Positions 1,999 through 52,782 of a DNA stretch of 64,000 nucleotides are shown piece after piece. This DNA is from an uncultured virus (IMG/VR IMGVR_UViG_3300047661_000097) (Duplodnaviria; Heunggongvirae; Uroviricota; Caudoviricetes), in IMG/VR virus record IMGVR_UViG_3300047661_000097; one strand, 5' to 3'. The position numbers and the translations under genes are program-made. Each line of letters begins with the position of its first letter. Position 1 is the stretch's first letter. The notes beneath the pieces were generated by a model. That model was not told where the DNA came from, made no database searches, and worked only from the letters and a program-made list of their open reading frames with translations.

Positions 1999-3716
1999 TA
2001 CTTCACCACCGCAGCGCCTAAACTCTTGTAGTGATCAACTTGATCCATAGGCACCTGCTTAATCATTCCATTAGGTGCCTTCATTTTTACCATGCCGCTG
2101 TTACCCACGCCGCTACCAACACCGCCCCGGCCGTATTCAGTGTTTAGCCGATCAAGATGCTGTTTTAAAATATTCACTTTTTCATGCGCCAATCCAACCA
2201 TCTGTCTCATTTGTTCGGGGGTTAACGTTACGCCTGATTTCCATCCATCAAAAATATAATTGCCAGTGGCGTCTTGATGAAACGACTTTGCGATCATACG
2301 CTCGTCCAAGTGAGCCGATTGCACAGCTTCATTCCATACTGCTTGGTTAATGCGTGCGCCTTTTTGGCCACCAAGAGTCATACCAATGTGATTAGCTACC
2401 AGCGAAAGCATGGCTTGTTGGTCGCCGCGTAAAGCATTCGCTAAGTTGAGATCCATTGTTTTCATTCTGTCTACGGAAGATTCATAATCCTTTTTCGTAT
2501 CAGAATAATCTTTTGGCGTTTTGAATCCAATTACACGGCCGACTTTAGGCGCATTAGGCACCGCGGCAGAAGTCGCAGGAACCACACCTGCCTTAGAAGT
2601 TGGCGCTGTTGCACGTGGAACACGGCGACGCGCTTCCCCTGGAGTCCTTGGTACTGTATCTGCGGCAGGCGGCGACGCTGCGACTGGCGACGCTGCAGAC
2701 GATGCGCCAGCAGAGGCCGATGGCCCTGCAGCGCCAGGTCTTCCAGCACCAACAGGAACCGACGTATGCGTTTCCGGTACTTGAATGACTTGTCCAGTAT
2801 CTGGATCGACATAATGATAAAAGCCAGTCGTTATTCTCCCCGTTAAAGATGCCGGCGGCACTAAACCGTAATTTCGTGTTCCCGGAATTTCCTGATGCGT
2901 TTTTGCATCTAAATTGACCGAATAGATCTTGCCTTTTGCGTCACGAGCCCACCCCGTTTTTGGCTGCGATTCCTTAGGCGCGATTTTCGCGCCGTTTAGC
3001 ACCTCGTTCGGAATCGGCTCTCCAGTTAAGTATTGCCATTTGCCGCTTTTCACATCCTGCTGAGCCGTCAGCGTTCTGCCGTCCAGCAACGTCAGGGTTT
3101 GTGTCTTAAAACTTTCCGCCGTTGGCTTTGGTTCCGTCACCTTTCCCGTCCGTGCGAATTCCTTCTTCACATCCTCAGGCGGCTGAGCCTCACGCCCCAT
3201 TACTTCCTGGTAATTTGCTGTATATTTTTGCCACGGCGTTTGCTGCGCAACGTATGTCGGTGCCGCTGTCGCCTTCCTTTGCGCCTCCGCCTGTGCTCTC
3301 AGCTGCGCTGGCGTCTGTGGTCCCTGAACCATATATGCCGCTCCGGCTGGTACCTTTTCACCATCAATATCCATGGTCGGTTGGCCAATAACCGGGGGCG
3401 CAACAGCAGTCTGCTTGCCGCCGCCTTTCGTTAAATGCAACAAATGACCAAACTTTTGAAGCGCGCCAGGTTGTTGCGCAAAAAGACCATTTCGGCTTTC
3501 AATTGCCTGTTGCAATGCATACTTAGTTTTTAAATATTCAGGGGTTCCAGGTTTTACCGTCGAAAGCTTCGTCTGCAAATTACCAATATCATTTTGAAGA
3601 TCGCCAAAGTGAGTCTGAAACTCTTCGTCGGAGAGTTCTTTCTTGCGGGCATACCGCTGCTGCGCAAGTTGCGAACCTAGATTCCAACCACCTTGCCATG
3701 CTTCGCCGCTTGCCAT
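1998..3716 (-). CDS. Putative internal virion / DNA ejection protein (572 aa)
   Basis: Long Q/A/P-rich ORF translationally coupled to the next gene. Call rests on synteny. Confidence 0.45.
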   Translation of the reverse strand: MASGEAWQGGWNLGSQLAQQRYARKKELSDEEFQTHFGDLQNDIGNLQTKLSTVKPGTPEYLKTKYALQQAIESRNGLFAQQPGALQKFGHLLHLTKGGGKQTAVAPPVIGQPTMDIDGEKVPAGAAYMVQGPQTPAQLRAQAEAQRKATAAPTYVAQQTPWQKYTANYQEVMGREAQPPEDVKKEFARTGKVTEPKPTAESFKTQTLTLLDGRTLTAQQDVKSGKWQYLTGEPIPNEVLNGAKIAPKESQPKTGWARDAKGKIYSVNLDAKTHQEIPGTRNYGLVPPASLTGRITTGFYHYVDPDTGQVIQVPETHTSVPVGAGRPGAAGPSASAGASSAASPVAASPPAADTVPRTPGEARRRVPRATAPTSKAGVVPATSAAVPNAPKVGRVIGFKTPKDYSDTKKDYESSVDRMKTMDLNLANALRGDQQAMLSLVANHIGMTLGGQKGARINQAVWNEAVQSAHLDERMIAKSFHQDATGNYIFDGWKSGVTLTPEQMRQMVGLAHEKVNILKQHLDRLNTEYGRGGVGSGVGNSGMVKMKAPNGMIKQVPMDQVDHYKSLGAAVVK

Positions 3717-4319: not shown

Positions 4320-4344
4320 AAATCCCCCAAGCAAAAACAGAAAT

Positions 4345-4414
4345 AGCCCAGTGGCCACCTCGGGCTCTGAGCCATTGCTTGTTCCCCTGAAGAGAGGAGG
4401 GCATGCTGCTCGAC
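4345..4414 (-). promoter_or_regulatory. Conserved structured late-leader element, copy 1 of 5
   Basis: + strand core GAGCCATTGCTT(G/A)TTC...GGGCATG...CTC(G/A)A shared with 9856, 23716, 25298 and 31171. Confidence 0.75.
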
Positions 4415-4522
4415 AATATATTTCCTGTATAGTTTACCGCTATTGCACAAATACGACTACATGTAAATCAACGTCAAAGCCAAACATAAAACAACGTTTT
4501 CTATCTTTTATATTACCGATAA

Positions 4523-9829: not shown

Positions 9830-9855
9830 TTTGCCCTTATTTGAAAAAACAGCAA

Positions 9856-9922
9856 TGGCCCAAAACCATTGCTGGTCTTGAGCCATTGCTTGTTCGCCAC
9901 AGGGCGGGGCATGTTGCTCGAC
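9856..9922 (-). promoter_or_regulatory. Conserved structured late-leader element, copy 2 of 5
   Basis: Same core motif and hairpins as the other four copies. Confidence 0.75.
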
Positions 9923-9959
9923 GACTTATTTTACGCTTTTCATTATTTCATATTTGAGC

Positions 9960-23637: not shown

Positions 23638-23715
23638 ATAAATCCTGTCCTTTCAGCGTGTTACTTGGTTATTCCGTAACCATCAATCTTGAATTTTTTT
23701 CCCAAAAACAAAAAA

Positions 23716-23777
23716 GGCTCAAGCCATTTCCGGCTTGAGCCATTGCTTATTCCCCGAAGGGGGGCATGTGTCTCGAC
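23716..23777 (-). promoter_or_regulatory. Conserved structured late-leader element, copy 3 of 5 (upstream of capsid)
   Basis: Minus strand ends in GGCTCAAGCC-GGAAAT-GGCTTGAGCC-TTTTTTGTTTTT, a perfect terminator-like hairpin. Confidence 0.8.
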
Positions 23778-23800
23778 TACTAACTCAAAAAATTACCGCA

Positions 23801-25270: not shown

Positions 25271-25297
25271 GATGTTCTCCTTGGGTTGAAATAGAAA

Positions 25298-25364
25298 TGG
25301 CCCAGGGGCCATTTCGGTCCTGAGCCATTGCTTATTCCCCAAGGAGGGGGGGCATGCCGCTCAA
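25298..25364 (-). promoter_or_regulatory. Conserved structured late-leader element, copy 4 of 5
   Basis: Core motif, preceded on the minus strand by TTGACA-N17-TATATA. Confidence 0.8.
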
Positions 25365-25411
25365 TATCTTTTCGATATATATGACTTATATTACTCTTTG
25401 TCAAGCACTAA

Positions 25412-28231: not shown

Positions 28232-30841
28232 TTAATCCCATCCTCCTACCCCAACGGCATTAAGGGAGCATACAGAGTGGCTAAGCGGCGGATTTATATT
28301 TGTTGGCGGTGAATAGCGTCGTTGCGCACGATCCGCCAATACATCCATGTCGTGAACCGTAAAGTACGATTGCGCAGCTGCGCGTACGCGGTCGTCATGG
28401 TAACCGCTACGATGCACCATTTTTGAAGCTCGGCCGGCGGCTTCATGGCGCTCCAGGGTCTTTAACTCTTCAATTAGCCACTTTGACGACGGTCGATACC
28501 AACCTCCATTTACGGCTTCCGTAAAGCGCGTCATCAAAATAGGCACGCTCCATACGTTTGAATACCAACCCTGCTTTTTGCTTGAATCGTCTTTAATCTT
28601 TTGGCTATCGTAGCGCTTTGGCTTGTGATGGTTATGGAATCCCATTAGCTTGAGCTGGTGTTGGCAAGTATCGCCAGGTCGGCTGATCTGTTCTACGCAA
28701 AATTTGACACCCAACGGGTTTTTGGTTCGTTCGCCATACCAAGCAGCTAAACAAGCAGCAAAGCCTACAATTTGTGCTGAATTTATCCTATTTGAAGTAA
28801 GTTCTGCCACTTGAATATCGCACTCATCACCAAATCTATTACGTGTCAAAGAAACGCAAGTGCGATCTTCATCCTCTTTTCCCAAACCATCAGCTGTATC
28901 AATTCCGCAGCTATAATCACAGCCCGGTTTTGGCTCTTCGTAAACCAAAAGCTTGTCTAGGGTATCGTTTTCTTCTTCTTCGTCTACCGTTTTTAATGGC
29001 ACCAAAGTCCAGAAAAATCTTTGTCCGCGGTCCGAAGTCCAATTAACACGAATATGTTGTTTTTCATAATCAATAGTCGTTTCATCAGGGTAAAACTCTT
29101 TGCCAATCGAATCACCAGTAATCGCGTATGCCTGAATTGGATTTTTTCTTTCAGCTTTACCATTTGGCTGAATTTCATAAACATACTTTTCGATTTCATC
29201 AATCACGTCAGAATCAAAAACACTGTCATGAACACCAGTTAAAGCCTCAAAATCATCGGCAGCCATTTGTGCAAACCAGATTTTTTGAGTATGGTTCTTG
29301 CACGCTTGGGAATAGTTAAACTCCCAGAACCATTGCTGCTCAACTGGCATTCTCCAATCTTTGCCTACTACTTTAGTTAAATATGGAGTATTACGAACAT
29401 AAAGTTCGCAACGCGTTATATGTTTGCGCGTGGCATCAATTGGATGCCAATCGCCAGGAATAGGAAATTTTCGAATCCAATCTTGCTCGGGATAAAGATC
29501 CGGCACCATAACCCAAGGAATAAAAATCGGGCAAAGCCGTGAGCGCCCTTTAGGCCAGTCTTCTTTAGCTGCGCGCCAAGTATCGGCCAGCCAGCCGGTG
29601 TTGCCGCCACCAGTTCCTTCAAAAACCAAAAACAAGTTGCGAGAGGAGTGAGTGGCCCTAAGTAGACCTTCCTCGATCACTTTCTTCGGTTTAGGTATAT
29701 CCGCTAACTCAGAAACGTGAATGGCCGTAGGTGTCCATCCTTGGGCAATTCCGGTCGCTTGCATACCAGACTGGATCGATAAGATCGATCCGTTCTCGTA
29801 GGAATTTTTTGATGTAGCTCTAGGCACAAGCCACCAAGGACATTGGTTGTAGACAGTATTTAAAATACGGCCGATCAATTCGGATTTATCCGATTGCACC
29901 GAAGCCATTACAGCTTGCGTATGTGGAATGAATAGCAGCTTATGAATAAATTTCAACGCGGTTTTGGTAGAATTATGCGATACAAACCCCTCGGCAATAA
30001 AGGTATGCGTTGAAGTTTGGATGTCAATCATCCGCTGCGGCGGAAGGGACTCCACCTTTACAACTTTTTTTAATTCAGTTGTTAGTTTAACTATTTTTTC
30101 AGATTTAATTATTCGCTCTTTGCCAAATGCGACATATCTGATTTTGTCGCCAACAATAATATCTTTGGTAAACTGCCAGCAAGCCTTTGTATTTTTATAG
30201 CCTAAAAAGCGGTGTTCTGGCGTCGCAATTAGTATGCGGCCGTCTTCAAACGTTAATCGTATTGCAGGTTGAAACACATCCCATTTAGCTTTAATTGTTG
30301 CCGTACTCATATACCATTTTTGATTATTTGTGTTAATTTCTTTTACAGCTACGACTTCTTCGCCAATAGCTAAATCATCAATCCGTTTCCACTCCAATTG
30401 TGCAGTAAGGACTTTCGTATCGGGCGATAGGCACATACCAACTTGCCGCGCCTTGATAACAAGCAACTCAATTGAAACTTGTTTTTCGTCAAAGTCCGCA
30501 ATTACTGAATCAAATATTTGTTGGGAAAGCCGGTTCTTAAATTTATAGATTTGGCCTTTTTCATTGCACACGTAGGCATAGCGGCTTTCAAAATAATTCG
30601 AGTCAAGGCCGCACAGTGCCTGCTCATTTTCAATCCAATGCCAAACTTCTTTACGACGTTTTTCAGAGATGGTACGGGTAAGAGTTACGTATGAAGATCG
30701 AGAGTTGCTCTCAACTTTTACAATAGAGTTGATGTAAGTCTTAAATTCATCTACTTGTTCAAGGGTATGATAGGTCGGCATCCATCCTTCGCGAGCTGCA
30801 AACTCGGTCAGGTTCGCCAGGATTACTCGTTCAGAATACAT
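28232..30841 (-). CDS. terL: Terminase large subunit with intein
   Basis: Walker A 'KARQVGM/ST', Walker B 'IHVSE', nuclease 'GIDTADG' and 'HDDRV'. Confidence 0.9.
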   Translation of the reverse strand: MYSERVILANLTEFAAREGWMPTYHTLEQVDEFKTYINSIVKVESNSRSSYVTLTRTISEKRRKEVWHWIENEQALCGLDSNYFESRYAYVCNEKGQIYKFKNRLSQQIFDSVIADFDEKQVSIELLVIKARQVGMCLSPDTKVLTAQLEWKRIDDLAIGEEVVAVKEINTNNQKWYMSTATIKAKWDVFQPAIRLTFEDGRILIATPEHRFLGYKNTKACWQFTKDIIVGDKIRYVAFGKERIIKSEKIVKLTTELKKVVKVESLPPQRMIDIQTSTHTFIAEGFVSHNSTKTALKFIHKLLFIPHTQAVMASVQSDKSELIGRILNTVYNQCPWWLVPRATSKNSYENGSILSIQSGMQATGIAQGWTPTAIHVSELADIPKPKKVIEEGLLRATHSSRNLFLVFEGTGGGNTGWLADTWRAAKEDWPKGRSRLCPIFIPWVMVPDLYPEQDWIRKFPIPGDWHPIDATRKHITRCELYVRNTPYLTKVVGKDWRMPVEQQWFWEFNYSQACKNHTQKIWFAQMAADDFEALTGVHDSVFDSDVIDEIEKYVYEIQPNGKAERKNPIQAYAITGDSIGKEFYPDETTIDYEKQHIRVNWTSDRGQRFFWTLVPLKTVDEEEENDTLDKLLVYEEPKPGCDYSCGIDTADGLGKEDEDRTCVSLTRNRFGDECDIQVAELTSNRINSAQIVGFAACLAAWYGERTKNPLGVKFCVEQISRPGDTCQHQLKLMGFHNHHKPKRYDSQKIKDDSSKKQGWYSNVWSVPILMTRFTEAVNGGWYRPSSKWLIEELKTLERHEAAGRASKMVHRSGYHDDRVRAAAQSYFTVHDMDVLADRAQRRYSPPTNINPPLSHSVCSLNAVGVGGWD
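29972..30433 (-). mobile_element. Mini-intein (154 aa) in TerL Walker A
   Basis: Begins CLSPDTKVLT, has block B 'ATPEHRF', ends 'FIAEGFVSHN' followed by Ser. Too short for a homing endonuclease domain. Confidence 0.92.
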
Positions 30842-31131: not shown

Positions 31132-31170
31132 TGTGTTATCTCCTTGGGAATAGAGCACAAAAACAGAAAC

Positions 31171-31240
31171 GGCTCAAGGCCATTTCTGGTCCCGAGCCAT
31201 TGCTTGTTCCCGCCTAGCAGCGAGGGGCATGTCGCTCAAC
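31171..31240 (-). promoter_or_regulatory. Conserved structured late-leader element, copy 5 of 5
   Basis: Core motif, preceded on the minus strand by TTGACA-N17-TAAATC. Confidence 0.8.
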
Positions 31241-39508: not shown

Positions 39509-39874
39509 ACCGTCCAGATCCTAGACTTTTCAGGGGCGAAGATTTTTTTCGCCCTTTTTTGTTTTGCTCCCGCCCGCGCTATTCTATCGCCATGAAACAC
39601 CGTGAAGACGCCGAATCCGCAAACCTGTTTGTAGATTTAAACTGCCAACACTCCCGCATTAAATGGGGCGCTTTGCAGCACGTCTATCTTGACGACGGCC
39701 GCGCGATTATCTGGCAAGAGGGAACCTGCAAGGATTGCAATACTAAAATGCAGCTCGATTACACCGCCTGCCCGCCGCGCTTATTTCTTGCCACAACTAA
39801 ATAATTTTATTGCATATACCAAACAAGTTTGCTATATTAATTCCAGCGGCCACCAGCCGCGTGGAGAATCCATC

Positions 39875-40786
39875 ATGTACAGCTTTCATTACGGTCGCAA
39901 CATGGGCACAGGATACCGGGAAGCGCTCACACTGGACGCGATACGTGCAATTGCGCCGTCCGCGTTCGCCACTTCGCCGCACGAGTCACGCTCTGCGCGT
40001 TATACGTACATTCCCACATCCGAGATTATTGCGGGATTGATGCGTGAAGGCTTCCAGCCTTTCAAGGCCGCTCAAAGTCGTTGCCGCATCGAAGGCAAGG
40101 CGGATTTTACCAAGCATCTGATTCGCTTTCGTCACGCCGATTCGCTGGCCACGGCAAGCCCCGAAGCCATTCCCGAAGTCGTTTTAGTCAACAGCCACGA
40201 CGGAACCAGCGCGTATAAACTCTTCGCCGGGATCTTCCGCATGGTTTGCACCAATGGCCTGATAGTCGCCGATTCCCTAGTCGGCTCGCTCTCCGTCCAG
40301 CACAAGGGCGACATCCTGCAGCAAGTCATCGACGGCAGTTTTCAAATTGTCGGCGATACCACTAAAGCGCTCGGCCGCGTCGATGAATTCCGCCAGCTCC
40401 GCCTTACGGACGGCGAGCAGGACGCATTCGCAGAGTCCGCCCATTCATTGCGCTTTGCCGATGCTGCCGGCGAAGTCAAAACGCCGATTACTCCCGCACA
40501 ATTGCTCTTCCCGCATCGCTCCGATGACCGTGACGAAAATTCTACCGTTTGGGGGCGCCCCGGCCATGACCTCTGGCACACGTTGAACACCGTACAGGAA
40601 AACGTGATTCGCGGCGGCCTCCATGGCACAGCCTACACGCCGAACGCGCAAACCGGCCGCCCCGTCCGCCGGCGCGTTACCACTCGCGCGGTCACCGGCA
40701 TCGATCAAGATGTAAAATTGAATCGCGCTCTATGGATGCTGGCGGAACGCATGGCGGAGCTAAAGGGTGTAGCCGTAGCGGCCTAA
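39875..40786 (+). CDS. DUF932/DUF945-family protein
   Basis: 'HESRSARYTYIPT', 'FTKHLIRFR', 'LVNSHDGTSAY...FRMVCTNGL' and 'DVKLNRALW'. Confidence 0.85.
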   Translation: MYSFHYGRNMGTGYREALTLDAIRAIAPSAFATSPHESRSARYTYIPTSEIIAGLMREGFQPFKAAQSRCRIEGKADFTKHLIRFRHADSLATASPEAIPEVVLVNSHDGTSAYKLFAGIFRMVCTNGLIVADSLVGSLSVQHKGDILQQVIDGSFQIVGDTTKALGRVDEFRQLRLTDGEQDAFAESAHSLRFADAAGEVKTPITPAQLLFPHRSDDRDENSTVWGRPGHDLWHTLNTVQENVIRGGLHGTAYTPNAQTGRPVRRRVTTRAVTGIDQDVKLNRALWMLAERMAELKGVAVAA

Positions 40787-42131: not shown

Positions 42132-42377
42132 AGGGAAATCAATTATGACAATGAGTAAGAAAGATTTTCAATGGATCAACATTCTAATTGATTTAGCGCT
42201 TGCAGATGTGAAGTATTGCATTGATCGCGGAGACGAACACCACGCATACACCGCCACACTTACACTTTGCATGAGAGCAAAAAGATTAAACGCAAAGTAG
42301 GGTTACAGCAAAAAATTAATCGCCGCGCCCGCGCGCTCGCGGGCAAAGCAGTAACCAACTGCATGGAGAATGAAGCA

Positions 42378-42830
42378 ATGGCAGAGCAAGATGAGTTTTT
42401 CGGCAAAGTGATTTACAGCTATACGCGCGCGCAAGCGATTGCAGACGGCGTACTCGTCGACCTTTCGGACCCGTCTTTCACCTTCCGCCCCGGCCTCAAC
42501 ATTTTGAAAGAGGCCGGCATCAAATATCCCGTAGCCATGACGTTGACCGCATTCGCGCGCATGGTGCATGATCCCGATAGCAATGAGCCGTTACCGCCAG
42601 GTCAAGACGTGAGCGGCCGCCTATGGGACGTTCTAATGGTCTTCAAACTCTACGCGCGCCAGACCGCCGGCGATATATTCCTCTTTCCCGTTCGCGTGCA
42701 GAATTGGGTGTACGTCGACGGCAAGCGTACTGAGCGCGCCAAACTCGAAACCGTAGAGCTCAAGGCGGTTTGCGGCCCCGGCGACACGCCCGCGCCCGTC
42801 ATTACCATCATGCTGCCCAATGAAGACTAG
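42378..42830 (+). CDS. Early hypothetical protein ('YSYTRAQAIADGVLVD')
   Basis: Motif common in mobile-element proteins. Ends 'VITIMLPNED'. Confidence 0.65.
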   Translation: MAEQDEFFGKVIYSYTRAQAIADGVLVDLSDPSFTFRPGLNILKEAGIKYPVAMTLTAFARMVHDPDSNEPLPPGQDVSGRLWDVLMVFKLYARQTAGDIFLFPVRVQNWVYVDGKRTERAKLETVELKAVCGPGDTPAPVITIMLPNED

Positions 42831-43973: not shown

Positions 43974-44495
43974 TTGATAGAGGGTATTCGCATGCTTTCA
44001 GTCATTCCCGCGCAAGAGTTTGTCGAGACGCCCGCAGAAGCCGAGCAGCCTGTCCAGCGCGCGCCCAAACGCCGCCGCGGACGGCCTAAGCTGACCACGA
44101 CACAGCGCCGCGCACGTGATCTGGCCACCAGCAACAATCTTACCGATCAGTTGCTCTACGCCTTTCGGCGCGGCAATCGCCTTTTTGCCATTGGCGGCTT
44201 GCTCGTGGGCGGCTTTATTCCTTTGGGCAGCTATACGCTCATTCATCAAGAAGTTGCTGCTCGGCCTTACCTCTGGGCGCTGGTCGCCGGCGGTCTGCTG
44301 TATTCTTCCACCAGCGTCTTTTTGTGGGCAGACAGCTACTTCCACAGCAAGCTCAAGGCAGTTGGCTTTGTCGTGCTGCTCGAGGGAATTCTTACGCTCT
44401 CGTCTGTTGAATGGCTCAGCATCGCCGGCCTGGCCATTTTGATGAGCTTGAACGCCGTCACGGCGGCCATGCCCCCCCAAGCCAAAAACCACTAA
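43974..44495 (+). CDS. Membrane protein with AT-hook-like RRRGRPK motif
   Basis: Basic N-terminus followed by about 4 hydrophobic segments. Confidence 0.55.
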   Translation: MIEGIRMLSVIPAQEFVETPAEAEQPVQRAPKRRRGRPKLTTTQRRARDLATSNNLTDQLLYAFRRGNRLFAIGGLLVGGFIPLGSYTLIHQEVAARPYLWALVAGGLLYSSTSVFLWADSYFHSKLKAVGFVVLLEGILTLSSVEWLSIAGLAILMSLNAVTAAMPPQAKNH

Positions 44496-44520
44496 CCAAA
44501 ATTACAGGGGAAGAAAAATC

Positions 44521-44991
44521 ATGAAAATCGTACTGATTATGGACGGCGGAGTCATTCAGCAGATTTTGTGCGACGAAGCCGTAAAAGTCGCCATCGTCGA
44601 TTATGACGTGGATGGGATTGACGAATGCCAGCGCACTTCCATCCAGCTCGACGACGACGCGCCCGAAGAGGCTTTCACCAATATCATGGTCGCCGATGTC
44701 GCGCCCGGCCTGGCGAACAAGCTGTACGGCATTTGCGAAGCTGATAGCAAACCCACTGAAACCACCCCAGCGCCGGCACCCGCGCCCACCCCCCAGCTAA
44801 ACCTTGCAGAGCTTGAACGCATCGGCTCGGAACTCGCGCAAGCGCTTTTCTATTGGCTGCCGGGCACAAAGCCGATTCCATACGTTCACGACAAAACCGG
44901 CGAAGCGCATCATCAAAAATGGGATGAGGCTAAACTGATTCTCGACCGCGCAAAGCAATTAGGGTTGACGAAGCCCATAAAAGTCTTATAA
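44521..44991 (+). CDS. Hypothetical protein (156 aa)
   Basis: Its last codons overlap the first promoter of the sRNA array. Confidence 0.55.
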   Translation: MKIVLIMDGGVIQQILCDEAVKVAIVDYDVDGIDECQRTSIQLDDDAPEEAFTNIMVADVAPGLANKLYGICEADSKPTETTPAPAPAPTPQLNLAELERIGSELAQALFYWLPGTKPIPYVHDKTGEAHHQKWDEAKLILDRAKQLGLTKPIKVL

Positions 44992-45933
44992 TGATCTTGA
45001 TCGCCGTCGGCGACAGAAGACGATTACAAGTCAATTGCTTTTAGCTAATTACACTTCAACAAGTGTCGCTCGAACGCGCCCCGCAAGGGGCGCGTCCTGT
45101 TTCTGGTTGACAATGACCGAAAAAGTCTTATAATTATCAATGATCGCCGCCGGCGACAGAAGACGATCTGCTTGCCAAATTGCTGTGCAAAATTTGTATA
45201 AGTGTCGCACGAACGCGCCCCGTAAGGGGCGCGTCCTGTTTTTAGTTGACAATGATCGAAAAAGTCATAAAATGATTAGTGGTTGCGGTCGGCAACAGAA
45301 AGCAACCAAGTTTTACAAAGAAGTTCATTCTTCTTTACTAAGTGTTGCACGAACGCGCCCCGCAAGGGGCGCGTTCTGTTTCTGGTTGACAAAGCCCATA
45401 AAAGTCCTATAATGATACTGATCGTTGTCGGCGACAGAAGACGATCATAAGCTGATTGCTACAACTGATAGATGAAGTGTCGCGCGAACGCGCCCCGCAA
45501 GGGGCGCGTCCTGTTTTCAGTTGACAAAGACCATAAAAGTCCTATAATAATCTTGATCGTGGTCGGCAACAGATGACGATTACAAGCGATCACAAACTAC
45601 TTGCTAGCAGACCTTAAGTGTTGCACGAACGCGCCCCGTAAGGGGCGCGTCCTGTTTTCGGTTGACAAAGACCGCAATAGTCTTACAATGATCTTGATCG
45701 CCGTCGGCGACAGAAGACGATCACAAGCTAATTACTTTTAGCTTTCAGCTAAGTGTCGCGCAGAAGCGCCCCTTGCGGGGCGCGTTCTGTTTCCGGTTGA
45801 CAATGACCACAAAAGTCCTATAATAATCCTTACCGTGGTCGGCAACAGATGACGGTTTAGTTTTAAAAAAAACTGTACAAACGTAATACAAGTGTTGCAC
45901 GAGCGCGCCCCGCAAGGGGCGCGTTCTGTTTCT
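44963..45933 (+). ncRNA. Tandem array of seven promoter-sRNA-terminator cassettes
   Basis: -35 boxes at 44965, 45107, 45246, 45386, 45521, 45662 and 45797 (period 135-142). Each has a -10 box, a 5' hairpin, a variable segment, AAGTGT(C/T)GC and a GCGCCCC-N4-GGGGCGC hairpin with T run. Confidence 0.8.
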
Positions 45934-45949
45934 GTCCAGATTGTAAACA

Positions 45950-45978
45950 CAAAAAAAGCCGGGCGCGCGGCCCGGCCT
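45950..45978 (-). terminator. Intrinsic terminator for the convergent minus-strand genes
   Basis: A7 run, then GCCGGGC...GCCCGGC. Confidence 0.6.
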
Positions 45979-45998
45979 AAAGTTGCTTCTCGATCTTT

Positions 45999-46295
45999 CT
46001 ATTTCCGCTCAAGATTCGTAATGCGAACGCTGCATCCCTCGATTCTCCCGGAATGCTCACCCAACAGCTCATAAAACCGCCGCAAGTCGCCCTCGATCAC
46101 GTTCAAGCGCCCTTCAATCTTTGTAAAGCGCCCTTCAAACCCTGTAAAGCGCCCTTCGATCCCTGTAAAGCGGCTTTCCACTTCTACAAAACGTGCTTCG
46201 ATTCCTTTGAAGGAATACATATTCAGCAAGATCCCAAGCAGCACCATAAAACTTGGAATCCCAATCGCCAGCCATAATTGCAGGTTTGTCATCAT
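45999..46295 (-). CDS. Membrane-anchored heptad-repeat coiled-coil protein
   Basis: N-terminal TM segment, then 21-nt repeats encoding (I/F)EGRFTG. Confidence 0.65.
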   Translation of the reverse strand: MMTNLQLWLAIGIPSFMVLLGILLNMYSFKGIEARFVEVESRFTGIEGRFTGFEGRFTKIEGRLNVIEGDLRRFYELLGEHSGRIEGCSVRITNLERK

Positions 46296-47180
46296 CGGCG
46301 CCCTCGACCTTTCCAGTATACCTGAACTGTTCTGCCATTATCGCCTAATAATTGTTCATTTCTGACCAATTCGCGATTCTAAATTTTCCATCTTCTTTAC
46401 TAACAGGTCATGCGATTTCCAGACAGCGCGGCGCACGTCAACCGCGGCCGCGCCAATAGCAACAAGAATCATTACAATCCAAACGTGATCCATACTTCCT
46501 CCGTCTTAAACTCCTGGAACAATCACCCAGGTTTATTCGGCCAATATAAAAATAAGCCGCAAAGAAAAATCTCTGCGGCTCACGTGCCAGTGGTCGGGCA
46601 CAAAAAGTTATTCGGGTGGTGTAGCATTCGCCGGCTGCTCTTTGGCCGCCGCAGATCCTTCCTGGTCAAGCAAGTATGTGTTGGTAGCTTCAACGTATTT
46701 CGGACCGCTGACGCTATCAACTTCCATGTTGTCTACCATGTCGATGGCTTGCTCGGCATCATCCGCATCAATTACAAAGTCTTCGACATAAGTTTCAAGC
46801 TGCCTGATTAAAAACTTCGGCATCGCACCCCCTCCATTCATCTTTTACTAATATATGCAAACTGGTTTGGTTTGTCAAGAAAAATATATATTGATATTTT
46901 GAAGATTGCTAGAAAAAAGCCCCCTGGCCGTGCTACAAAAAAGTATGATCTCTCGGGGTCGAATTTTGTGCTGGCATTGTGTCTGCGAAATCTGCAAGCA
47001 CAAGTGGATCTCCATTAACAAACATCCCCCAGAATTTTGCGCCAATCACGCCTGCCATACACGTGATTGGAATGGCCCCAAGAAACACCGCAAAATATCT
47101 ATTGCACTGCCCAAACCTAACAAGATGCGGCACCCTAATGAATACGACACCGATACCGCGGCAGCTTAGCGAGGCTAGTC

Positions 47181-47643: not shown

Positions 47644-48066
47644 TCAATGGAAATCGTCCCAAAAATCATCAGATGCCACAGGGGCAGTTATTACGGGCGC
47701 GGGTGCCGGCGCCGGCGTTTCTTTGTTCAAGGGTGCGCCCAGCAACGCCAAATCGTTTACCTTGATCTGCGTTTGCGACTTTTTTTCACCCGAGCGCGAA
47801 TCCTGCCAAGAATGCGTCTCGATCTTGCCCTCAATATAGATTTTGGAACCCTTCGACACGAACTTCTCAACAATTTCTGCCAGCTGCGCATACGCAGCCA
47901 GGTTGTGCCACTCTGTACGGTCTTGCCAGTTGCCTGCGTTGTCTTTGTAGCGCTCGCTGGTGGCCAGCGTCCAGGTCGCAACCTTTGTGCCGCTGGGCAT
48001 CGCCCGAATCTCTGGGTCTTTGCCCGCGTTTCCTAGCAAAATAACCTTATTTACACTTTTCGACAT
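47644..48066 (-). CDS. ssb: Single-stranded DNA-binding protein
   Basis: 'SVNKVILLGN.GKDPEIR', 'TEWHNL', 'KGSKIYIEGKI' and an acidic tail. Confidence 0.95.
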   Translation of the reverse strand: MSKSVNKVILLGNAGKDPEIRAMPSGTKVATWTLATSERYKDNAGNWQDRTEWHNLAAYAQLAEIVEKFVSKGSKIYIEGKIETHSWQDSRSGEKKSQTQIKVNDLALLGAPLNKETPAPAPAPVITAPVASDDFWDDFH

Positions 48067-48871
48067 ATCACACCTAGCTTCTCGCCGCTGCAAACGGCAA
48101 ATTTCTTGAGTTATCATAACGCAGTATTTATTTGTAAGCTAGACGAATAACGCACTTAGTTAGTTTGGCTTTACGTTCGCTTTTGACCGCATCACTCCAT
48201 AGGCATCCAAGCATTGCTTTAACGGCTCAATATTAGGATGCATGTTATGTTCCACAGCCGTTTCAATCGCTATTGCGCTAAGAGCAATATGCTGCAATGC
48301 AATAATTTCACGAGCCTGTTGCTCGATGAAATCTTTGCGCTCATATAGGCTATCTATTAATCTCTGTATCAAATAATCACGCCAAATAATACCAACAACT
48401 AAAAACAACTCCACGCCGCACAGAACAATAGCGCCAACATAACGGTGAAAACTAAAATCAATCGTTGCTTGCGCTCCATCCATAAAAGCCCATGCCACAA
48501 CAAATCCAGATAGGCACGTATTTAAAATCTTTGTCAATTTAATTTTCAAAACCACACCTCAACAATGCAAGGATCGTCATCATCATAACGCGCCATTCGG
48601 TAAAGCCCTGGTGGCACCATTTTCCGAATCTCCGCAAGCGAATCCGCTACCTTAATATCGTTGGTCGCAATCATCTGATTGGCGCGAATATCCCATCGCC
48701 GCAAAACGTATTTTGTTGGGTAGTCGCGTGGATCGTCATAAATGACCCATTGCGATATTTCCGCAGATGGCTTATCAGTCAAATCTTTTTCCATGCAAGC
48801 GCTCCATGCAACGCATCCCGGTAATCGTCATTTAAGCACCCCCTCAATAAATGGCAATTACCGGAACACAG

Positions 48872-51477: not shown

Positions 51478-51807
51478 CTATTGATTGGTTGCCGGCTTCT
51501 CGCTGTCTTTCTCTTCTGCCACTCCCCAAATCTGCTCTATTGGAATTTGATAAGAAGCGGCTATCTTCAGCGCAATCACCAAACTCGGAATATCTCCATT
51601 TTCAATCCGGCTTAAAGTCGCATGCCCAATACCAATAATCGCTGCCGCCGGTTTAACCGCAATCTTTGCCTGCTCACGCAGTTCTTTCAAATCAACCAGC
51701 AAAACGGCTTTGTCCAATGTTTTTTCTTCCACAGAATTTCCCCTCCCCACTGATAAAGATAAAGATACCCTTTTTGAACTCCAAAACATAGAAAAAATTG
51801 CGCGCAA
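51478..51807 (-). CDS. XRE-family HTH regulator
   Basis: 'AAAIIGIGHATLSRIENGDIPSLVIALKIA'. Confidence 0.8.
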   Translation of the reverse strand: MRAIFSMFWSSKRVSLSLSVGRGNSVEEKTLDKAVLLVDLKELREQAKIAVKPAAAIIGIGHATLSRIENGDIPSLVIALKIAASYQIPIEQIWGVAEEKDSEKPATNQ

Positions 51808-52092: not shown

Positions 52093-52166
52093 AATGCGTC
52101 AGATAATTGGCACAATGTGTCAAATAGTTTGGTACAATGTGTCAAATAGTTTGGTACAATGTGTCA
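52093..52166. repeat. 22-bp tandem repeat upstream of the resolvase
   Basis: AATGTGTCAAATAGTTTGGTAC twice exactly, plus degenerate and partial copies. Confidence 0.8.
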
Positions 52167-52179
52167 GAGGGGAGGGCCT

Positions 52180-52782
52180 ATGCGTGTCGCGATCTACCTT
52201 CACGATTCCCAAACTCAGGGCCTACTTGAAGCTGAGCAACTAACAGCATTCACCACACAAAAGGGGTGGAAAATCGTAAAGATTTACCGCAATAATTCCG
52301 CTAAAAAAACAGCCTTTCGCGACATACTAAAAGATGCCCAAGAGGCCCATTTTGATGTGTTGTTGTTTTGGTCGCTCGCTCAGATCTCAAACGATAGCAC
52401 CTCATCCACCATTCGGATATTGAATCAGCTAAACGAATTGGGTATCAAATTTCAATCATTCACTGAACCCCATTTTGGAACATGTGGAACACATGGTAAA
52501 ACAACTTCTTTGGTTCTCTCTTCACTCGCCAAAGAAGAACAAAAATCCTTATCTAAACGTATCTCAGAGCGCACAAAAGCCGGCCTTGCAAAGCAAAAAG
52601 CCGAGGGTACACGCGGTCCTCAAGGGCACCTTGGGCCCGGCAGACCTCCAACCCAATTCAATGAAAAACTCGCTCAAGCCCTGTACGCAAAAAAAATGTC
52701 GTATGCGGAAATTGCTGCCGCTTGTCACATCTCCAAAGCCAAAATTTGGCGCTATTTCAACTCACACAGCACAAAGCGTTGA
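52180..52782 (+). CDS. Small serine recombinase (resolvase/invertase-like) with degenerate active-site motifs
   Basis: 'MRVAIY', 'FDVLLFWSL', 'ISERTKAGL', 'GRPP' and a C-terminal HTH. Confidence 0.75.
   Translation: MRVAIYLHDSQTQGLLEAEQLTAFTTQKGWKIVKIYRNNSAKKTAFRDILKDAQEAHFDVLLFWSLAQISNDSTSSTIRILNQLNELGIKFQSFTEPHFGTCGTHGKTTSLVLSSLAKEEQKSLSKRISERTKAGLAKQKAEGTRGPQGHLGPGRPPTQFNEKLAQALYAKKMSYAEIAAACHISKAKIWRYFNSHSTKR

Follow-up and report, generated by a model that had tools for sequence, protein, structure and literature searches.

A Phage Array of Seven Sibling Genes for a Predicted Structured Small RNA with a Divergent Middle Segment

Introduction

Positions 44963–45934 of the window, the whole 64-kb stretch of phage DNA analyzed here, hold seven tandem units that each carry a promoter and a hairpin, and the locus raises the question of what these units encode and how their products might serve the phage. 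An earlier note on this DNA had described them as independently transcribed genes for pseudoknotted RNAs of ~105 nt, with a constant scaffold and a unit-specific segment, and had offered guides, antisense RNAs, or decoys as possible roles. The anatomy of the array, its conservation in three phage lineages, the compensating changes in both helices of the RNA, and its presence in RNA libraries are documented below. The reading that we favor, tentatively and with less than even confidence, is that the array comprises seven sibling genes for a new phage small RNA that would act in trans, by a mechanism that we infer.

Results

The seven units (135–142 bp, all on the plus strand) were recovered, as the earlier note had described them, by repeat finding, in which family D3 has seven copies at a spacing of 135–141 bp, by TRF, which reports periods of 135 and 139 bp and also one of 276 bp, corresponding to two units, and by motif counts. 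The loop motif GTCGGCRACAGANG, with at most one mismatch, occurs seven times versus 0.09 by chance, and a promoter-plus-spacer motif occurs seven times versus an expected 0.00, the rest of the window being without it. From 5' to 3', each unit is composed of a σ70 promoter, a 5' stem-loop, an AU-rich divergent segment, the motif AAGTGTYGC, and a GC hairpin, followed by CTGTTT. The promoter pattern TTGAC(A/G)-16-TA(T/A/C)AAT is matched in all seven units, with scores of 12/12 in four and 11/12 in three, and a terminator-like GC hairpin is present in every one. What had been reported as a T run after this hairpin is a T-rich tract, but a short and interrupted one, CTGTTT(T/C). A short U tract is atypical for Hfq-type small RNAs.

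Unit 1 (44963–45104; 103.7 bits with model R1) has a G-type loop, GCGACA; its promoter lies at 44965–44992 (TTGACG-16-TATAAT), its predicted RNA at 44998–45104, and its divergent segment within 45018–45060, followed by AAGTGTCGC from 45061 and a hairpin at 45074–45095. Units 2 (45105–45243; 101.6 bits) and 4 (45384–45518; 102.7 bits) are also G-type and have 12/12 promoters at 45107–45134 and 45386–45413, predicted RNAs at 45141–45243 and 45419–45518, divergent segments within 45161–45199 and 45439–45474, and hairpins at 45213–45234 and 45488–45509, respectively. The remaining G-type unit, unit 6 (45660–45794; 92.3 bits), has its promoter at 45662–45689 (TACAAT), its predicted RNA at 45695–45794, its divergent segment within 45715–45750, and a hairpin with the loop TTGC at 45766–45783. 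The A-type units (GCAACA/TGTTGC) are units 3, 5, and 7. Unit 3 (45244–45383; 108.8 bits), with the 5' stem GGTTGC/GCAACC, has its promoter at 45246–45273 (TAAAAT), predicted RNA at 45280–45383, divergent segment within 45300–45339, and hairpin at 45351–45376; for unit 5 (45519–45659; 102.3 bits) the corresponding locations are 45521–45548 (12/12), 45554–45659, 45574–45615, and 45629–45650, and for unit 7 (45795–45934; 108.2 bits), with the 5' stem ACCGT/ACGGT, they are 45797–45824 (12/12), 45830–45933, 45850–45889, and 45901–45926.

The array sits where rightward and leftward blocks of genes converge. On its left, an ORF of 156 aa (44521–44991, plus strand) overlaps the promoter of unit 1 with its final codons and stop; this ORF is kept at the same position in both related phages described below, has no Pfam, PHROG, or PADLOC match and only five homologues found, one of them on a 139-kb contig, and has an Atlas model with no named fold at TM > 0.5, it being noted that RAMPs are hard to see by sequence. 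At the right-hand end lies the terminator hairpin (45956–45978, minus strand) of a convergent gene for 98 aa (45999–46295, minus strand). Cumulative GC skew has no turn at the array, iteron-like short repeats are absent, and no tRNA or tmRNA was found in the window. A 73-kb relative has an estimated completeness of 54%, so that the window is probably only a part of a genome whose full length is likely to be well over 64 kb. Fourteen DNA runs, from peat and permafrost metagenomes, hold at least half of the sampled words of the stretch; its source is an uncultured peat phage.

Relatives were sought by exact-pattern scans, metagenomes being covered in one of them. Among viral sequences, one of the seven loci from the pattern scan is a true relative, the single locus from the hairpin scan is that relative again, and a relaxed scan gave 64 loci, of which one, in the same viral record, passes model R1. 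In the metagenome scan 4 of 38 loci were true, representing the window's own genome and one new lineage that was seen twice, whereas none of the 21 loci from species genomes was, so that they provide neither a prophage copy nor a clue to the host. These scans yielded only two other lineages, whose genomes are ~72–78% identical; in both, the element occupies the corresponding place in the genome, with nine units in L039 and one in L006, giving copy numbers of 1, 7, and 9 across the three lineages; the terminator hairpin at 45956–45978 is conserved in both. A blastn search of the array against 50,697 phage records gave no match at E ≤ 1e-3, and the nearest record, G001 (11.7 kb), has no match. 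When the upstream ORF was used as an anchor in viral contigs only two weak N-terminal matches were found, and the downstream ORF gave none.

The fold was evaluated with 17 units from the three lineages (seven from the window, nine from L039, and one from L006), but it should be noted that the alignment, A3, was fitted to a model, that tandem copies share ancestry, and that only three independent genomes are represented. Within the window, the reported co-occurrence of loop and downstream sequences is present in all seven units, GCGACA being paired with TGTCGC in units 1, 2, 4, and 6 and GCAACA with TGTTGC in units 3, 5, and 7. The pairing is therefore kept in every unit, as had been claimed, but this does not amount to seven independent events, since the two-unit period of 276 bp suggests that the alternation of G- and A-types was partly copied by duplication. 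The claimed variants of the 5' stem (ATCG/CGAT, GGTTGC/GCAACC, and ACCGT/ACGGT) were also seen; over the 17 units this 6-bp stem has double changes at four of its six pairs and is 91% paired. RNAalifold, unprompted, predicts an 8-bp helix between the loop of the 5' stem and sequence 3' of the variable segment. Pairing reaches 97% in this long-range helix, whose covarying pair is G-C in 10 units, A-U in 5, and G·U in 2, with no A·C (Fisher one-sided p = 0.0034, not corrected for shared ancestry); an A·C mismatch is found elsewhere in the helix in 2 of the 17 units, which need a shifted register. The A/U state is found together with three distinct 5' stems, an argument for the switch having occurred more than once, and the 16 G·U versus 7 A·C cells favor a plus-strand RNA over double-stranded DNA or the minus strand.

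The alignment thus supports the maintenance of both helices by compensating changes in the 17 units of three lineages. Of the proposed family of ~105-nt pseudoknotted RNAs, what stands is a structured RNA of predicted length ~100–105 nt in which both helices covary; these may form an H-type pseudoknot or be the two states of a switch, the sequence fitting either. A pairing of ACAG in the loop with CUGU in the tail was rejected, as its four pairs are invariant and the flanking position is without covariation (A3, by eye), and late-leader repeats considered as relatives of the loop share only GCRRCA with it, the prefix not being conserved, and were judged to be chance.

Between units, identity is 86–93% in the core and 81–84% in the promoters, with promoter spacers conserved at 69–77%, as against 49–52% in the middle segment, which is the level of shuffled sequence. 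This segment is AU-rich, 24–35 nt in length, and partly self-paired, and it differs in all 16 array units of the window and L039 (seven and nine, respectively). Its description as unit-specific is borne out by this divergence to random-level identity but has to be qualified, as the segments of units 1, 4, and 6 have remnants in common, those of units 1 and 6 being 69% identical. The segment of unit 3 is 84% identical to that of unit v1 of L039; in this orthologous pair change is confined to the tip of the hairpin, between conserved flanks of the segment, and the hairpin is kept with a different sequence, a pattern that looks like selection on the segment. Folding of the divergent segments is slightly more stable than that of shuffles (mean z −0.88; z < −1 in 6 of 17). 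Their random-level identity would fit relaxed constraint as well as selected diversity.

The array sequence is present in RNA libraries, two of the four examined having contigs inside it. One contig (45159–45236) falls inside unit 2 and two (45478–45652 and 45440–45590) run from unit 4 into unit 5. Independent transcription of each unit, as proposed in the earlier note, is consistent with the promoter and hairpin that every unit possesses, but three of the four contigs cross a unit border, which points to read-through or DNA carry-over, the contigs carrying no strand or end information. In library X16 the depth is 8–17 in the array and zero on the genes that flank it in the 2-kb stretch, and in X15 and X20 coverage is limited to the downstream gene region of that stretch, which has no bearing on the array.

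No exact match of at least 12 nt to any divergent segment was found elsewhere in the window. Ungapped pairing of the seven segments with the 64-kb window is within the range of shuffles, 3 to 33 of 40 of which reach the observed score, as is that of eight segments with the 73-kb relative G002 (1 to 18 of 30); the value of 1 in 30, for unit 1 against G002, does not remain significant when eight tests are taken into account. No excess of complementary sites was seen for either the constant loop or AAGTGTYGC. The guide, antisense, and decoy roles that had been put forward thus gained neither a target in these 64 + 73 kb of phage DNA nor a recognized partner protein.

A search of the whole window against Rfam 15, whose families include the pistol, twister, and hammerhead ribozymes, riboswitches, CRISPR-DR, and known small RNAs, gave no match at the gathering score, in agreement with the view that the family is an unrecognized one. 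Among sub-threshold scores (E ≤ 10, 44800–46100) that overlap units, the best is GibS at 20.4 bits (gathering 115), and ACAT and CRISPR-DR36 reach 17.4 (37) and 14.4 (38). No description of the element was found in the literature, where sequence motifs are not searchable, so that this is a weak sign of its being unpublished. The RNA family looks real and new, and apparently phage-specific.

The locus also does not have a CRISPR layout, as the earlier note had recognized: the units are 135–142 bp including the promoter, and the sequence to the left of the segment is not repeated to its right. A CRISPR array or crRNA was rejected for want of short (about 23–47 nt) direct repeats on both sides of a spacer. 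A likeness to the CRISPR repeats that define RNA anti-CRISPRs (Racr, solitary repeat units) did not show up among the CRISPR-DR families of Rfam, which cover few repeats. Cas families are absent from the 57 ORFs searched with Pfam and the 30 each searched with PHROGs and PADLOC, the window not being the whole phage genome; the same three resources gave no RAMP, nuclease, or ToxN-type protein in the ORFs scanned, PADLOC matching none of 30 early-region ORFs. In Sib/Ibs-like type I toxin-antitoxin loci, a small hydrophobic ORF on the opposite strand overlaps each RNA gene. The array units have no conserved small ORF on either strand, and ATG ORFs of at least 15 aa occur only here and there in the arrays of the window and L039, and the one unit of L006 has none; as no small ORF recurs unit by unit, this class was rejected. 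ToxI-type repeats are 34–45 nt in length, are transcribed from one common promoter, and are cut by the toxin; they are tandem, each is said to fold as a pseudoknot, and phage copies act as decoys. The array resembles them in having tandem RNA repeats with a possible pseudoknot fold but differs in its units of 135–142 bp, each with its own promoter and hairpin, and the analogy with pseudo-ToxI that had been drawn, like that with a ToxI-like type III antitoxin, fails on unit size and layout. A VIPR vrRNA was rejected because none of the seven window segments contains GG and YNNGG repeats are absent; the neighboring ORFs have no family match to a vipr (RAMP) gene, although sequence searches see RAMPs poorly. 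The layout of tandem sibling small RNAs, in which ORF-less genes lie head to tail with their own promoter and terminator, is present in all seven units and in the nine of L039.

Discussion

In the reading that we tentatively prefer, host σ70 RNA polymerase would start each RNA at its near-consensus promoter, and the GC hairpin with its weak U tract would end it, termination probably being leaky, to give an RNA of ~100–105 nt with presumably discrete ends. The RNA would open with the 6-bp stem, whose loop CGGCRACA would pair with UGUYGC-N-CG just 5' of the 3' hairpin, and the two helices would enclose the AU-rich segment of 24–35 nt, which appears to be fast-evolving and prone to form a small hairpin. 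The RNAs may then find their targets in trans through base pairing. Their folded core would make them stable and supply a handle common to all siblings, and the divergent hairpin segment, as the putative determinant of specificity, would direct each sibling to a target of its own. Host transcripts or rival mobile elements would be the most likely targets, because none was found in the available phage DNA.

The absence of a base-pairing target in the phage DNA searched would also suit a dosage array of protein-binding decoy or sponge RNAs, an alternative that we regard as possible but rather unlikely. The core and/or the 3' hairpin would titrate a host protein, either a defense or RNA-processing factor or a Cas protein, as with RNA anti-CRISPRs, and the middle segment would be a tolerated linker whose divergence would also keep recombination from collapsing the array. 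The core and 3' hairpin hardly vary, either within a phage or from one phage to another, beside a middle at random-level identity, and the row of seven to nine strong promoters, with copy numbers of 1, 7, and 9, fits a dose effect; for Racr, inhibition is reported to be dose-dependent and the RNA to be highly expressed from its own promoter (PMC10651486). However, no Rfam CRISPR repeat is matched, the best (DR36) being at 14.4 bits against 38, and no partner protein was recognized among the ORFs scanned. The gene conversion that homogenizes the flanks should also homogenize a neutral linker, yet 16 of 16 array units differ, and in the pair of unit 3 and v1 it is the hairpin tip alone that changes between conserved flanks, which looks like selection on the segment.

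It is decidedly unlikely that the RNAs are programmable guides for an unrecognized effector, in the manner of CRISPR, VIPR, or TIGR, with the core as handle and the middle as a guide aimed at rival phages or host genes. Such a role is suggested by the combination of a constant scaffold and a variable insert in arrayed phage RNAs of ~100 nt and by their resemblance to phage VIPR vrRNA arrays, whose conserved tail in the SUSP1 clade includes a pseudoknot (10.64898/2026.04.26.720920); the effector could lie outside the window, since this is probably only part of the genome. But the segments are of unequal length (24–35 nt) and partly self-paired, and their common ancestry reflects mutation, not acquisition; the lack of GG in all seven means that the YNNGG code is absent, and neither a Cas, RAMP, or nuclease by Pfam, PHROGs, and PADLOC in the ORFs scanned nor a match among the 50,697 phage records was found. 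A role at the level of DNA or transcription, as a transcription-activated origin, a promoter sink, or an insulator between convergent operons with the RNAs as by-products, would account for the dense row of consensus promoters where gene blocks converge and for the unusual conservation of the promoter spacers (69–77%). We consider it very unlikely, given the compensating changes in two helices and the 16 G·U versus 7 A·C, which indicate selection on the fold of a plus-strand RNA, and the lack of iteron-like repeats and of a turn in GC skew.

A further possibility, which is unlikely, is a programmable RNA system that is independent of protein or has an unrecognized effector, in which the pseudoknot would act as a clamp presenting an exchangeable hairpin, with each of the seven to nine siblings aimed at a host defense transcript or rival mobile element of its own. 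Within phage lineages the clamp would be retained and the hairpins rapidly re-tooled; such a system, if real, would be the RNA-only equivalent of guide arrays and would have no relation to CRISPR, TIGR, or VIPR.

In the P1/P7 c4 and P4 CI antisense immunity RNAs, loops set specificity and a few loop changes create a new one; these RNAs are encoded by single genes, are processed from a leader, and have their targets in the same operon. The array RNAs are likewise small structured phage RNAs but are encoded in arrays and have no target in the available phage DNA. The GC hairpin of the array may be loosely like type I-C CRISPR repeats, a likeness that is given no weight as evidence. In LhrC and NsiR1 RNAs a conserved single-stranded motif is the seed, whereas the conserved motifs of the phage array are paired to one another, and neither sequence nor Rfam links the array to these RNAs. 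LhrC1–4 of Listeria (PMC4132741) and NsiR1 of Nostoc (PMC4030482, PMC9045159) are tandem multicopy loci of sibling small RNAs and are reported to consist, like the array, of homologous head-to-tail genes with their own promoter and terminator, in copy numbers that vary among relatives, but are chromosomal and under host signals, in contrast to the phage-borne array with its hyper-divergent middle. The vrRNAs of VIPR are defined by 9–16 YNNGG repeats and a Vipr RAMP gene and have a proposed role in inter-phage conflict (bioRxiv 10.64898/2026.04.26.720920). They are similarly ~100-nt phage RNAs, sometimes arrayed, in which a conserved structured part caps a variable one, but GG is absent from all seven segments here and no vipr gene was recognized. 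Racr RNAs are also small phage RNAs with their own strong promoter and the dose-dependent logic of a decoy but are defined by their likeness to CRISPR repeats (PMC10651486), which Rfam did not reveal in the array.

Phage RNAs that disarm or reprogram hosts, such as Racr, crRNA-like RNAs, and vrRNAs, have come into view only recently, and the array represents a clean, covariation-backed case of an apparently phage-only RNA family in which a conserved folded core is combined with a rapidly diversifying insert in seven to nine strongly promoted copies. As the promoters are consensus σ70 promoters, expression in laboratory strains should be easy, which opens the fold, the RNA ends, and any binding partners to tests that do not need the native host. 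Should specificity reside in the insert, phages would have in the array a new means of carrying a set of targeting RNAs; should it not, the RNA would be a new decoy or sponge. Either way, the short list of non-coding RNA families in phages would gain one.

Results

The array comprises seven units of 135-142 bp, arranged head to tail on the plus strand (44963-45934). Each opens with GGTTGAC(A/G), a spacer of 16 nt by the tool's count, and TA(T/A/C)AAT, matching the sigma-70 consensus at 12 of 12 positions in four units and at 11 of 12 in three. A stem enclosing GTCGGCRACAGA begins about 6-8 nt past the promoter; next come a divergent, AU-rich stretch (32% G+C versus 48% window-wide), AAGTGTYGC, and lastly CGCGCCCCGYAAGGGGCGCG with NCTGTTT after it, a combination that passes a terminator scan in all seven cases. 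The promoter-plus-spacer motif occurs seven times versus 0.00 expected and is absent from the rest of the window; the loop motif occurs seven times versus 0.09 by chance. Unit mapping, motif counts, and the terminator scan thus confirm the repeated architecture described in the earlier note. The promoter of unit 1 overlaps the terminal codons of a 156-aa ORF (44521-44991), and a hairpin at 45956-45978, separate from the array units, terminates the convergent gene (45999-46295, minus strand). The 98-aa product of this gene, which is kept in both relatives, has an N-terminal membrane helix and then 7-residue GIEGRFT-like repeats, arising from a 21-bp tandem repeat at 46105-46172 (3.2 copies, 89% matches).

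Relatives were sought, as the earlier note had asked, with a covariance model (R1), applied as a filter after exact-pattern scans. True relatives were few (1 of 7 viral loci, 4 of 38 metagenome loci, and 0 of 21 species-genome loci), and a relaxed viral scan gave 1 true locus in 64, the record already found. With duplicates removed (L026 matches the window at 100% identity and L014 matches L039 at 99.95%), three independent genomes remain: the window, with seven units; the metagenome relative L039, with nine; and a 72,987-bp related phage record, G002 (to which loci L006 and L075 belong), with one, so that the element is found in only two other lineages. Its position is shared by all three, which have a common upstream ORF on one side of it and a common convergent gene on the other. 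G002 and the window are collinear, with a nucleotide identity of about 66-85% (for the most part 72-78%). In G002 (L006:~3110-3290, minus strand), an additional small ORF, whose paired Cys motifs look zinc-ribbon-like by eye, and a separate terminator hairpin intervene between the upstream ORF and the sole RNA unit. IMG/VR classifies G002 as a provirus, but neither an integrase nor a clear host flank was seen. The species-genome scan (21 loci) gave no prophage copy in any named genome, and so no clue to the host. CheckV rates G002 as 54% complete at 73 kb; the window is probably well short of a full phage genome, and a target or partner gene may therefore sit outside it.

Over the 17 aligned units (alignment A3), 91% of cells pair in the 5' stem (columns 2-7 with 23-28), where four of the six pairs show two-sided changes, and 98% in the 3' hairpin. 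RNAalifold, with no structure supplied, returned a long-range pairing of columns 11-18 with 67-75, a helix of 8 bp with a one-base bulge that joins loop CGGCRACA to UGUYGC-N-CG and is paired in 97% of cells. Only one of its pairs varies, being G-C in 10 units, A-U in 5, G·U in 2, and A·C in none (one-sided Fisher p = 0.0034, shared ancestry not corrected for). None of 500 shuffles attained the observed percentage paired or covariation score, and moving the partners by 1-3 columns lowered pairing to 24-51%. Two L039 units have UGCCGC, giving an A·C mismatch, where a register shift of two gives back five pairs. It should be noted that A3 is model-fitted, although its paired columns lie between invariant blocks, and that the covariation comes from three lineages whose tandem copies are related by descent and exchange sequence.

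The earlier note had stressed that this pairing is kept in seven of seven window units. The pattern holds, but the array has a 276-bp two-unit period, so the alternation of G-type (GCGACA with TGTCGC) and A-type (GCAACA with TGTTGC) units is partly copied and the count overstates their independence. A purely copied origin is opposed by the occurrence of the A/U state on three distinct 5' stems (GGUUGC, GAUCGU, and UACCGU), by the association of UACCGU with both states, and by the G·U intermediate in two units of differing context. Since the long helix encloses the 3' arm of the 5' stem but not its 5' arm, the two helices would form an H-type pseudoknot, with loops approximately 3, 4, and 35 nt long, if they coexist; in some units the stem is extendable to 9-10 bp and would then compete with the long helix. 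Covariation bears out both helices of the pseudoknot proposed earlier, and these may constitute either that fold or a two-state switch, which the sequence does not separate. The units are very probably real, selected, structured RNA genes.

The divergent segment behaves differently from the rest of the unit. Mean pairwise identity between units (window and L039, respectively) is 84 and 81% for the promoter, 77 and 69% for the promoter spacer alone, 92 and 93% for the loop, and 88 and 86% for the 3' part, versus 52 and 49% for the middle segment, which is at the random level (50% in shuffled segments). Three window segments have clear L039 counterparts (u3-v1, 84%; u7-v2, 72%; u6-v9, 71%; shuffle 99th percentile, 63%), arranged in a different array order. 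The 5' and 3' modules of u3 and v1 are not alike; in their segments, conserved flanks surround a hairpin tip built from different bases in each. The segments fold slightly better than dinucleotide shuffles (mean z, -0.88; z < -1 in 6 of 17). Spacer-like acquisition was rejected on account of these counterparts and of remnants common to the u1, u4, and u6 segments. Neither in the 64-kb window nor in the 73-kb relative did any segment pair better than shuffles, and sites complementary to the constant motifs were not in excess.

Fourteen DNA runs contained 50% or more of the words sampled from 44400-46400, and six RNA runs contained 6-10%. Two of four RNA runs examined gave array contigs, X16 at 45159-45236, 45207-45281, and 45478-45652 (depth 8-17), with the flanking genes of the examined stretch uncovered, and X17 at 45440-45590. 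The array is thus present in RNA libraries, as contigs that carry no strand or end information; discrete 100-nt RNAs are a prediction. That each unit is independently transcribed, as had been suggested, agrees with the promoter and terminator-like hairpin of all seven, but three of the four contigs cross a unit border, reflecting leaky termination, additional transcription of the array as a precursor, or DNA in the library.

The window is phage-like and sparsely annotated, with a distant major-capsid match (27% identity to Tunturiibacter phages) and genes for SSB, a metallophosphoesterase, DUF932 and DUF6573 proteins, a Cro/CI-type HTH protein, a small serine recombinase, a DNA methylase, and a primase-helicase. 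The DUF932 (39689-40786, plus), DUF6573 (42267-42830, plus), and SSB (47644-48117, minus) genes surround the array; such a set is typical of early or "leading" regions of mobile elements with counter-defence functions, which places the array in an early-gene neighbourhood. The HTH gene (51478-51807, minus) adjoins that of the 207-aa recombinase, of resolvase/invertase type (52159-52782, plus). In the packaging/head region, an 869-aa ORF (28232-30841, minus) matches an intein splicing domain at 35.5 bits, just under the Pfam cut-off of 35.8, and may be a terminase or portal-region gene interrupted by an intein. The 64-kb window has no tRNA genes; beyond its left end, G002 has six in a cluster (L075:11867-12761), Leu(taa), Ser(gct), Ser(gga), Ser(cga), Ser(tga), and Tyr(gta), which we take to be exactly the bacterial long-variable-arm (class II) set.

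A second repeat family, a structured element of ~85 nt, occupies gaps between late (structural) genes on the minus strand, in five copies at about 4335-4432, 9845-9934, 23703-23779, 25289-25366, and 31135-31239. It consists of CATGCCCC...GGGGAAYAAGCAATGGCTC and then a long hairpin with a terminal T run; a ribosome-binding site and start codon lie immediately after the copy at 31135. RNAalifold gives 23 pairs, four with double changes, and Rfam gave no match. Blastn places it at five sites in G002, three of which a stricter regular expression retrieves. A role in late-gene control is possible, as a leader/terminator element such as an antitermination target.

Discussion

The expectation that the array family lacks a known Rfam identity is borne out, there being no match to the units, ribozymes and CRISPR repeats included. 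As had also been recognized, this is not a CRISPR array, since the left and right flanks of the segment are not mutual copies. The suggested likeness to phage pseudo-ToxI repeats fails on unit size and on the promoter in every unit, by which a ToxI-like antitoxin repeat was rejected; a type I toxin-antitoxin repeat was rejected for want of a recurrent small ORF. A VIPR vrRNA was rejected as well: vrRNAs, according to section 6 of a preprint (10.64898/2026.04.26.720920), need YNNGG repeats, and GG occurs in none of the seven window segments.

We propose that the array comprises sibling small-RNA genes that host RNA polymerase would express strongly and whose products would be stabilized by the 5'-terminal stem and pseudoknot and would act in trans. 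That the divergent hairpin segment base-pairs with targets outside the phage DNA examined is the leading but tentative reading, somewhat short of probable. The segment itself may be selected diversity or a weakly constrained linker, both of which fit the data; a dose-amplified decoy or sponge, with the core as the working part, is a less likely account of the array. Guides for an unrecognised effector appear improbable; Cas, RAMP, Hfq, ProQ, and ToxN-type families had no matches among the proteins searched (57 ORFs with Pfam, 30 each with PHROGs and PADLOC). A DNA-level or transcription-level element is more doubtful still, and the 16 G·U versus 7 A·C cells across the structure favour RNA of the plus strand, rather than of the minus strand, and rather than double-stranded DNA.

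No description of the element turned up in literature searches, which is weak evidence for its being unpublished. Rows of self-contained small-RNA genes are already known, examples being LhrC (PMC4132741) and NsiR1 (PMC4030482, PMC9045159), and the array resembles them in this respect. Unlike those rows, it represents a new RNA family, located in a phage, in which a conserved clamp surrounds a fast-evolving insert.
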